Shown: positions 9,001 through 13,657 of the stretch, piece by piece
Layout of the letters: every line of letters begins with the position of its first letter
Position numbering within the stretch: position 1 is the stretch's first letter
Made by a program: the position numbers
Source of the DNA: a virus
Virus genome (UHGV): UHGV-1773670
DNA length: 13,657 nt
Strand: one strand, 5' to 3'

Positions 9001-12000
9001 TCAGTAATTCTGTTTTCAAATTTTTCAGGGGAAAACTTTTCTTTAAGGTAATTCAGTGCGCAGGCCTCATTCTCTGGATTTTCAGCATTTTTCCCTATAG
9101 CAATAGAAATCTCAGATATCCTTGATTCAATTCTTTTACGTTTAATAAAACTAGAAAAAAAGAACCACGCAATCTGCAACCCTATCCCCAGAAATAGAGT
9201 TGCGGCAACTAGCACAGCGTAACTCATAGAATCAGACACACCAACCTCCTTAGTTTTGCGCAGGATACCATGAAAAAAGTTAACATTGGAAACGTACCAA
9301 AGATGCTCGTTCCGCTCTTTGAGAGCGGTACAATTGTGTTTTGTAGAGACTTTCCAGAATGGCAACGCCTGCATCAAAAACTTGGCGTTGACGTGCATGA
9401 CTCGGACGCCAACGGAGCGTCTCATACAATGAGTAGCGAGAATGGTGTTTTGCATGTGATAGGCGTGTTCAATGGCAAACTATCTACTATTGCCCATGAG
9501 TGCGCTCACATGGCATTCGATATCTGCTCAAGGGTAGGTGTTGATGTTGAACCAGGAAGAGCCAACGAGACTTACTGCTACTTAATGAGCAGGCTTGTTG
9601 AGTTCTGCGAGCGACATATCAAAAAGCCGGAGTGACCCGGCTTGATTATTACTTTTTGCTGTCTGGAGTTCGCTTATCCAATACCCAGCCATGACCTGGC
9701 TTTGTTGTTGGTGGAAGCCTTTCGTTGTCCTTGACGGTTGCAAAATTGTCTTTCTTACCGCCGCGTGGGCCAACTTCTTGGTATATTCCGCCGTTTTTTC
9801 CTGTGTTTTCACCTGGTTTTTTCGCCATGATATACCTCAACATACACCCGTTATTGGGCGATTAAATATTGATCTCATTTTATAAGTAGTCAATATGGCC
9901 CAGGTAAATGCAAAAATTAACCCACCTTCAGGTGGGTTTTTTGTACAAATCCTTCAGCGTATCAAACACCATCTTCTTAACAAGCTCTGACTGCTCATCA
10001 GCGATGCGTTCCGCATCGTCTCGATAGCCTGAAATTTTGGATGGCTTTGATACAGCATCAGTCACTATCTGAACTAATTCTGAATTAAGAGAGCGGCCAT
10101 TGGATTTGGCTCGCTGTTTTAGTTTTTCCTTTAATTCGTAAGGTAGCCGCAGATTAAATTGCGGGTCATCTCTTCCCATTCTTGATGCCTCGCTTTTGTG
10201 AGTGGATCGGCATCTTATTATCTGCTGGTTGCATCCTCAATAAGACCACAGTGGTCTCTTTGTTTGATTAATAATGCATCACTGTGGCAATGCTGCGGCG
10301 ATTCCTTGTATCTGGAGCAAATTAAATGACAGACATTACAGCCAATGTTGTAGTGAGTATGCCTTCGCAACTCTTCACTATGGCGCGTTCTTTTAAAGCC
10401 GTAGCCAATGGCAAAATTTATATCGGTAAAATTGACACTGACCCGGTAAATCCTGAAAACCAGATTCAGGTTTATGTAGAGAACGAAGACGGTTCTCACA
10501 TTCCTGTTTCGCAACCAATAATCATTAACGCTGCTGGATATCCGGTATATAACGGACAGATTGCCAAATTCGTTACCGTGCAAGGCCATTCTATGGCTGT
10601 TTATGATGCGTATGGTGCGCAGCAGTTCTATTTTCCTAATGTGCTGAAGTATGATCCTGATCAGTTACGGCAGCAATTAGAAGACCCAGATGGAGCGAAT
10701 AAATACCCAAAACTTCAGATAGCAAGATGGAGAGACAGTTATGATGTAAGAGGTTGGGGGGCTATTGGTGATGGTGTTCATGATGACACATCAGCTCTAT
10801 CAGAATTACTTTCTGTTGCAACAGGTGGTGAAAAGATAGATGGGCGAGGGCTTACTTTTAAAGTATCAACTCTTCCAGATGTCAGTCGATTTAAAAATGC
10901 TCGTTTTTTATTTGAGAGAATACCGGGTCAGCCTCTTTTTTATGCTTCTGAAGATTTTATCCAGGGAGAGTTATTTAAAATTACAGATACACCGTGGTAC
11001 AACGCCTGGACGCAGGATAAAACGTTTGTATATGACAATGTCATCTATGCGCCTTTTATGGCTGGAGACCGCCATGGTGTAAATAACCTCCATGTTGCAT
11101 GGGTTCGCTCAGGAGATGACGGGAAGACCTGGACAACGCCGGAATGGCTTACAGATTTACATGAAAACTATCCCACAGTTAACTATCACTGCATGAGTAT
11201 GGGGGTTGTCAGAAATCGCCTTTTTGCTGTAATTGAGACGCGGACCGTGAGCGGAAATAAACTGCAGGTTGCAGAGTTGTGGGATCGCCCAATGAGTCGC
11301 AGCCTTCGCGTTTATGGTGGTATAACGAAAGCAGCAAATCAGCAAGTCGCTTATATTCGCATTACTGATCACGGATTATTTGCTGGTGATTTTGTCAACT
11401 TCTCAAACTCTGGTGTTACAGGTGTTACCGGGAATATGACGGTGACTACTGTTATTGATAAAAATACTTTTACAGTTACGACGCAAAATACCCAGGATGT
11501 GGATCAGAATAACGAGGGTAGATACTGGAGTTTTGGTACATCATTTCACTCGTCACCATGGAGAAAAACCAGTCTTGGAACTATTCCTTCTTTTGTTGAC
11601 GGAAGCACTCCTGTTACTGAGATTCACAGTTTTGCGACGATTAGCGATAACAGTTTTGCTGTTGGCTACCATAATGGTGATATTGATCCACGCGAGCTTG
11701 GGATACTCTATTTCTCTGATGCTTTCGGTTCTCCTGGTAGCTTTGTTCGCAGACGCATACCTGTAGAATATGAGGCGAATGCATCTGAGCCATGTGTAAA
11801 ATATTATGATGGCATTCTGTATCTGACGACCAGGGGGACATTAAGTACTCAACCCGGTAGTTCATTGCACAGAAGCTCTGATTTAGGTACATCATGGAAT
11901 TCTCTTCGCTTCCCAAATAATGTTCATCACTCAAACCTTCCTTTTGCCAAAGTTGGCGATGAGCTGATTATTTTTGGCAGTGAGCGCGCATTTGGTGAGT

Positions 12001-13657
12001 GGGAAGGAGGAGAACCTGATAACCGTTATGCAGGAAATTATCCAAGAACATTTATGACCAGAGTTAACGTCAATGAGTGGAGTCTGGATAATGTAGAGTG
12101 GGTTAATGTTACTGATCAGATTTATCAGGGCGGAATAGTTAACTCTGCGGTTGGTGTTGGTTCAGTTTGTATCAAAGACAACTGGCTGTACTACATTTTC
12201 GGTGGGGAAGACTTTCTAAACCCATGGAGCATAGGGGATAACAACAGAAAATATCCTTATGTTCACGATGGTCACCCGGCTGATTTGTATTGTTTCAGGG
12301 TGAAAATTAAACAGGAAGAATTTGTTTCAAGGGATTTTGTCTACGGAGCCACTCCTAACAGAACGCTTCCTACTTTTATGTCGACGTCAGGCGTGAGGAC
12401 GGTTCCTGTACCCGTTGATTTCACAGATGATGTTGCCGTCCAGTCACTGACTGTCCATGCAGGTACATCAGGACAAGTTCGCGCGGAAGTCAAACTTGAG
12501 GGTAATTACGCCATTATTGCGAAGAAAGTACCGTCTGATGATGTTACCGCTCAGAGATTAATCGTTAGCGGCGGTGAAACAACGTCTTCAGCAGATGGTG
12601 CAATGATAACGTTGCATGGTTCCGGAAGCAGTACTCCACGTCGCGCGGTATATAACGCACTCGAACATCTTTTTGAGAACGGAGATGTTAAACCTTATCT
12701 TGATAATGTAAATGCTCTTGGTGGTCCGGGAAACAGGTTCTCGACAGTTTATCTTGGCTCCAATCCTGTGGTTACCAGTGACGGAACATTAAAGACAGAG
12801 CCGGTCTCTCCTGACGAAGCATTGCTGGATGCCTGGGGTGACGTCAGGTATATCGCTTATAAATGGCTGAACGCTGTCGCTATAAAGGGGGAAGAAGGGG
12901 CGAGGATACATCATGGTGTAATCGCGCAGCAACTTCGTGATGTTCTTATTTCTCACGGACTCATGGAAGAAGAAAGCACAACATGCCGCTATGCGTTTCT
13001 TTGCTATGACGATTATCCCGCAGTATATGATGACGTCATTACTGGCCAAAGGGAAATGCCGCTGACTGATAATGACGGGAGCATCATTGTTGATGAGGAT
13101 GATAATCCAGTGATGGTAATGGAAGACATCATTGAGCGCGTTGAAATAACGCCAGCAGGATCTAGATGGGGGGTCAGACCTGATCTCTTATTCTATATCG
13201 AGGCGGCATGGCAGCGCAGAGAAATAGAAAGAATAAAAGCTAGGTTAGACTTAATAGAAGGGAAGCACTAAATGTTTCGTTGGCGTCAAAAATATGAACT
13301 GCTCACATAAAGAAGTAAGTACATTGGCAAAAAACATTGACGTCAACGAAATTAAATATAAAAATTTAAATGCTTTTTAATGACAAGAAAAGTAACTAGT
13401 GGTAAAATAACGTAGGATACTAATATGTCAAGACTCAAGACTCAAGACTCAAGACTCAAGACTCAAGACTCAAGACTCGGTGATGCTGCCAACTTACTGA
13501 TTTAGTGTATGATGGTGTTTTTGAGGTGCTCCAGTGGCTTCTGTTTCTATCAGCTGTCCCTCCTGTTCAGCTACTGACGGGGTGGTGCGTAACGGCAAAA
13601 GCACTGCCGGACATCAGCGCTATCTCTGCTCTCACTGCCGTAAAACATGGCAACTGC

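Follow-up and report, generated by a model that had tools for sequence, protein, structure and literature searches.

A predicted CUS-3-type endosialidase tailspike gene in a defective P22-like prophage of Escherichia coli

The tailspike of phage CUS-3 is a modular protein, whose N-terminal domain is common to HK620, Sf6 and P22 and whose catalytic domain is common to K1F (PMC5380687). For its gene, siaK1 (ABQ88383.1, CP000711), GenBank gives the name 'endosialidase tailspike protein' and bases endo-alpha-sialidase activity on direct-assay evidence (citing PMID 16689790; Stummeyer et al. 2006). In the tailspikes of P22 (gp9), Sf6 (gp14) and HK620, a homologous N-terminal head-binding domain (amino acids (aa) 1-113 to 127) is followed by a receptor-binding part that forms a right-handed beta-helix, acts as an O-antigen endoglycosidase and carries no cleaved chaperone (PMC5380687). 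For the endosialidases, the autocleavage dyad is composed of a serine and a lysine five residues on (PMC3742443), and a deep mutational scan of the K1F enzyme identified H350, R549, E581, R596 and R647 as key catalytic (catalytic or substrate-binding) residues (PMC12632334). Here, we describe an open reading frame (ORF) in the UHGV virus genome UHGV-1773670, a DNA stretch of 13,657 nucleotides (nt) that is referred to as the window. As judged from its sequence, this ORF encodes, with a probability of about 0.93, a CUS-3-type endosialidase tailspike (siaK1) of the endo-N-acetylneuraminidase family that is typified by K1F endoNF.

Domain architecture and functional residues of the tailspike

A preliminary description of the window had placed a modular tailspike at positions 10326-13271, and a single plus-strand ORF of 981 aa is indeed found there, with the sequence GGAG located 9 nt 5' of its ATG. 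Domains were called using Pfam profiles, structure matches were obtained with PDB sequences and K1F gp17 was compared by pairwise alignment. All six Pfam domains are matched over their full length and in the expected order, which results in the following features:

10326..13271, + strand: tailspike coding sequence (CDS), predicted siaK1 type of CUS-3; single ORF from ATG to TAA, 981 aa
10326..10664, + strand: P22-type head-binding (tail-hub attachment) domain, aa 1-113; PF09008 Head_binding, 1.2e-66, profile 1-113/113
10665..10760, + strand: linker, aa 114-145, in which similarity to K1F gp17 starts (K1F aa 214); 56% identity
10761..10961, + strand: endosialidase N-terminal extension, aa 146-212; PF12218 End_N_terminal, 8.9e-37
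10962..12311, + strand: catalytic six-bladed beta-propeller, aa 213-662; PF12217 End_beta_propel, 7.9e-233, profile 1-367/367
11073..11987, + strand: predicted active-site span with H250, R456, E488, R503 and R554, from residue mapping to K1F
11109..11132, + strand: Asp box 1, SGDDGKTW, aa 262-269; aligned with K1F SGDDGQTW 362-369
11295..11543, + strand: beta-barrel nested in the propeller, aa 324-406; PF12195 End_beta_barrel, 1.2e-46
11874..11897, + strand: Asp box 2, SSDLGTSW, aa 517-524; aligned with K1F SRDIGQTW 610-617
12312..12776, + strand: stalk (triple beta-helix / tail-spike domain), aa 663-817; PF12219 End_tail_spike, 7.5e-78
12777..13268, + strand: C-terminal intramolecular chaperone / autoprotease domain, aa 818-981; PF13884 Peptidase_S74
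12777-12779 and 12792-12794, + strand: Ser818 and Lys823, the dyad at the putative cleavage site Thr817|Ser818, from mapping to K1F

The assignment of the N-terminus to the P22 gp9-type head-binding domain, already made in the preliminary description, agrees with the complete PF09008 match and with the structure matches, as aa 1-118 resemble the N-terminus of the Sf6 tailspike (PDB 7sg7, 9e-65) and aa 2-115 that of the P22 tailspike (PDB 2vky, 5e-51). Similarity to the P22, Sf6 and HK620 proteins ends at approximately aa 127. Beyond this point, the protein follows the endosialidases: aa 145-817 match K1F endoNF (PDB 1v0e, 3gvl) with E=0, the match ending where the crystallised mature enzyme ends, and the stalk-plus-chaperone construct of endoNF, 3gw6, is matched by aa 698-979 (8.2e-95). 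The resemblance to the endoNF propeller and chaperone that had been proposed as a check on the preliminary description is therefore present in both parts, and its endosialidase-like receptor-binding portion proved to consist of complete endosialidase domains at aa 146-817. The Peptidase_S74 profile (PF13884, 'chaperone of endosialidase') matches aa 818-878 with 41.6 bits (1.6e-10), exceeding its curated cutoff of 22 bits, and this match starts precisely at Ser818, in keeping with the K1F-type C-terminal chaperone that had been suggested.

The conservation of individual residues extends to the active site and to the processing site. All five key K1F residues (H350, R549, E581, R596 and R647) are kept in the tailspike, where they align with H250, R456, E488, R503 and R554, and the K1F second-shell residues Q330, D331, H527, S528, K585 and N699 named in the same study (PMC12632334) are also conserved. 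The two sialidase-type Asp boxes reported earlier are both located and each aligns with its K1F counterpart. Thr817, Ser818 and Lys823 correspond to Thr910, Ser911 and Lys916 of K1F, and the K1F GenBank record sets the boundary between the mature protein and the C-terminal domain (CTD; mat_peptide) at 910|911, so that the annotated gp17-CTD starts with Ser911. The cleavage serine that had been approximated to aa 818 near nt 12777 thus falls exactly on the codon at 12777-12779.

From the 99% identity to CUS-3 and the conservation of these residues, we infer both K1 specificity and autocleavage of the C-terminal domain. The mechanism proposed for the protein would involve trimerisation of three tailspike chains driven by the C-terminal chaperone, with aa 818-981 as the intramolecular chaperone of the stalk, a triple beta-helix. 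Ser818 and Lys823 would then cut the Thr817-Ser818 bond, the chaperone removing itself, and the trimer would be anchored at a P22-type tail hub through the N-terminal 113 residues of its chains. Its beta-propeller, carrying H250, R456, E488, R503 and R554, would cleave alpha-2,8-polysialic acid processively and allow a phage to pass the K1 capsule.

Relation to described tailspikes and exchange of the cassette

The CUS-3 siaK1 protein is likewise 981 aa long and displays an identical domain order, the window gene being 99.1% identical to it at the nt level and 99.0% at the aa level, and the attribution of the whole architecture to that described for CUS-3 (PMC5380687) in the preliminary description stands. 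The 10 substitutions, given with the window residue first, are V9I, P43T, I59V, P121T, A207V, D454G, V480A, G767R, T807I and A832T. None of them affects the functional residues listed above. Seven of the 10 substituted positions can be aligned to K1F, and at four of these seven the window carries the K1F residue. The two genes differ by 14 synonymous changes (~661 sites) and 12 changes in non-synonymous codons (~2282 sites), and the resulting ratio of ~0.25 is consistent with purifying selection on the tailspike gene. The surroundings are also comparable, since in both CUS-3 and the window neuO with AAGACTC repeats lies directly 3' of the tailspike and a mnt-type repressor lies 5' of it. In CUS-3, however, ant is located between mnt and siaK1, whereas the window is without ant at this place; in addition, the window has lost the head and tail-hub genes, and its neuO is interrupted by an end of the insertion sequence (IS) IS1.

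K1F gp17 (endoNF) is 64% identical over 851 aa (window aa 114-980 against K1F aa 214-1064), with 70% identity in the propeller. The two proteins share the N-terminal extension, the barrel-inserted propeller, the stalk and the self-cleaving chaperone, for which processing is predicted here. They differ at the N-terminus, where K1F carries a T7-type adaptor (~aa 1-213) and the window protein the P22 head-binding domain, as well as in a 7-aa propeller insertion (aa 423-429) and small insertions in the chaperone domain of the window protein. Among sequenced relatives, the 'phage tailspike protein' gene of E. coli EC931 is 100% identical at the nt level. The closest full-length record in phage collections is the 'tail fibers protein' of vB_EcoP-720R6, which shows 99.8% protein identity and 13 nt differences over the 2,946-nt open frame. 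Of 5,426 complete E. coli genomes, 181 contain matches that cover at least 80% of the length of the tailspike gene.

Matches to tailspike genes carrying the 'head-binding domain' in E. coli mostly stop at gene nt 338-354 (aa 113-118). A second type of joint is seen in the 1039-aa tail fiber of vB_EcoP_ZX5 (Uetakevirus; QTH80017.1), which starts with an unrelated N-terminal adaptor of ~190 aa and is 98-100% identical to the window at the DNA level from gene nt ~522 to ~2914 (aa ~175-971). It diverges on both sides of this cassette, and the last ~10 residues differ. In coordinates, window 10847-13239 corresponds to 2526-5015 of the ZX5 record (L005), and the endosialidase-plus-chaperone cassette is also present in two unannotated Phi05 records. 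The 5' breakpoint falls within the endosialidase N-terminal domain, and both breakpoints are sharp and internal to the CDS. Together with the 98-100% identity, such breakpoints indicate a probable recent movement between podovirus types, in which the endosialidase-chaperone cassette would have been exchanged between two temperate podovirus genera.

The surrounding prophage and its host

E. coli EC931, which was isolated from urine in China, matches positions 1-13478 of the window with 100% identity. The genes and joints of this region are listed below.

Gene order, left part: IS5 end, partial DUF5405 gene, abc, partial holin gene, lysozyme, Rz, KilA-N
Gene order, right part: terS, terL, gp20-like, gp16-like, three small ORFs, mnt (- strand), tailspike, neuO start
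1-55: IS5 end, recognised from sequence
320-613, - strand: abc (anti-RecBCD), preceded by a partial DUF5405 gene and adjoining a partial holin gene
5522..5531, + strand: deletion joint terL/gp20, at which truncated terL is joined to gp20; portal-to-gp7 genes missing
9928..10179, - strand: mnt-type Arc/Mnt repressor gene, divergent neighbour of the tailspike; Pfam Arc 2.8e-22, Repressor_Mnt 2.2e-18
13425..13478, + strand: neuO start, 154 nt past the tailspike stop; ATG, TC and seven AAGACTC repeats (13430-13478)
13479..13657, + strand: IS1 end, abutting the seventh heptad and interrupting neuO; the regions it matches carry the annotation 'IS1-like element IS1A/IS1B family transposase'

The terL of the window aligns only to residues 1-440 of the 470 residues of HK620 terL, and the gp20 gene begins two bases after it with its first ~7 codons replaced. 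The genes for portal, scaffold, coat, the tail-hub proteins gp4, gp10 and gp26, and gp14 and gp7 are missing from the window and likewise from EC931, whereas the intact relatives CUS-3 and vB_EcoP-720R6 retain head and tail-hub genes. This joint is present in one of the 5,426 complete genomes, that of EC931 itself, where RefSeq treats the flanking genes (terL and gp20-like) as intact. Because the portal, coat and tail-hub genes are deleted, the element of the window is unable to assemble a P22-type virion carrying its own tailspike. The placement of the tailspike on a P22-type virion in the preliminary description consequently holds for the type of phage and fails for this locus. At the other end, the holin gene lacks its 5' two-thirds, starts at ~683 and adjoins abc in the window as well as in EC931. 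Because of this abutment, the P22-like prophage appears to have lost its whole early, immunity, replication and Q region as well, and the late promoter appears absent in EC931. The tailspike gene is, on this reading of the sequence, intact but stranded, in a prophage that has neither its early region nor the genes for portal, coat and tail hub.

Neither arc nor ant is present between mnt and the tailspike gene. Window 8745-9843 contains a 236-aa ORF (- strand; 164 aa in the RefSeq version), together with one ORF of 121 aa and another small one on the minus strand, and in CUS-3 its counterpart is a block of hkcB, hypothetical genes, a second mnt and ant. The window ORFs show no Pfam match and may be candidate immunity-region moron genes. 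A scan of the whole window with Rfam returned no family reaching the gathering score.

In EC931, the prophage lies between ybhC and ybhB, beside the bio operon (gal-bio interval), and includes a tyrosine integrase (L002 12995-32600). CUS-3 is located at argW, and the EC931 element is not integrated at argW-dsdC, the site expected of a CUS-3-like prophage. For these prophages, among which decay is reported to be common, another site of insertion, 'between pgl and bioA', has been published (PMC9659370), and the ybhC-ybhB interval falls inside it. The GenBank record of vB_EcoP-720R6 (L006 12671-20298) contains the host genes ybhB, bioABFCD and uvrB and is therefore a prophage excerpt at the ybhC-ybhB site. 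The kps cluster of EC931 comprises an alpha-2,8-polysialyltransferase-family gene, neuC, neuB and neighbouring neu-type genes, and therefore represents a K1-type capsule locus.

The gene downstream of the tailspike, neuO, is phase-variable, encodes a polysialic acid O-acetyltransferase and accompanies the CUS-3-type tailspike. Its AAGACTC heptad motif has been described (PMC3046976), and the CUS-3 record annotates a poly(psi) repeat at the equivalent relative place. An imperfect inverted repeat, tttcgttggcgtcaa ... ttgacgtcaacgaaa, was noted by eye at window 13275-13351, between the tailspike stop and a neuO promoter-like site at 13380-13408. The EC931 RefSeq sequence has several dozen heptads (~35, as counted by eye and not by script) and a continuous neuO without IS1, whereas in the window the IS1 end starts at its own first base at 13479 and runs to the window end. 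The exact heptad/IS1 junction has no match in GTDB species-representative contigs, and a megablast search of 13330-13657 against complete E. coli genomes yielded separate IS1 matches only, the junction being absent. Either the insertion is peculiar to the source isolate or the junction arose during assembly. Its position at the exact first base of the IS1 end would favour a real IS1 insertion, and the window looks like a contig flanked by IS copies.

Alternative readings and meaning of the locus

Chance Asp boxes and a fortuitous C-terminal resemblance in an unrelated P22-like tailspike were considered and ruled out by the Pfam propeller match (7.9e-233), the endoNF match (E=0) and the full-length coverage. 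Some observations do weigh against a functional CUS-3-type endosialidase at this locus. Residue 454, two positions before R456, is D in the window, G in CUS-3 and A in K1F. A promoter scan of the 146 bp that separate mnt from the start codon gave no convincing sigma-70 promoter, and the late-gene activator region is apparently deleted in EC931, so that expression of the tailspike from the EC931 locus is uncertain. An endosialidase fold acting on another substrate than plain K1, such as K92 with its alternating alpha-2,8/2,9 linkages or O-acetylated polysialic acid, could be imagined from the stalk, which is just 56% identical to K1F and carries Met760 at the position of K1F Q853, a residue that belongs to a stalk site for sialic-acid binding; moreover, the endosialidase of phi92, whose host is K92, is a 59.6% identical relative. 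Such a change of substrate is nevertheless very improbable, given the 99.0% identity to siaK1 of CUS-3, from the K1 strain RS218, the propeller active-site residues shared with K1F and the alpha-2,8-polysialyltransferase capsule locus of the matching host genome, EC931.

A further question concerns the present role of a CUS-3-type endosialidase gene in such a prophage. The chances are about even that the gene is a relic that has not yet decayed, silent and without contribution in its strain, in a dead prophage. This would fit the truncation of terL onto gp20 and the loss of the portal-to-gp7 genes at a joint confined to a single complete genome, the partial holin next to abc in EC931 with its implied loss of the early region, Q and late promoter, the IS5 at the left, the IS1 end interrupting neuO in the window and the frequent decay of CUS-3-like prophages. 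The 2,946-nt frame, however, is wholly open and only 13 nt away from that of vB_EcoP-720R6, and a relic status would bear on current use and not on molecular identity, being compatible with the identification as a CUS-3-type endosialidase. That the intact gene is still in use, its product being captured by the tail hub of a P22-like phage that resides in the same cell or superinfects it, or serving the host as an endogenous capsule-trimming enzyme, seems a long shot; if true, capture via the common head-binding domain would confer K1 tropism on a P22-like phage.

The tailspike protein itself is already known, and the literature covers its architecture and modular evolution as well as prophage decay in the CUS-3-like group. 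What is added here is context only: the prophage that carries this copy is defective and occupies the gal-bio site, its strain has a K1-type capsule locus, and neuO is interrupted in the window. For annotation, the RefSeq name 'phage tailspike protein' could become K1 polysialic-acid depolymerase (predicted). CUS-3-type endosialidase serves as a polysialic-acid reagent and is an anti-capsule candidate, and the allele of the window, with its 10 substitutions, would provide a further natural variant.

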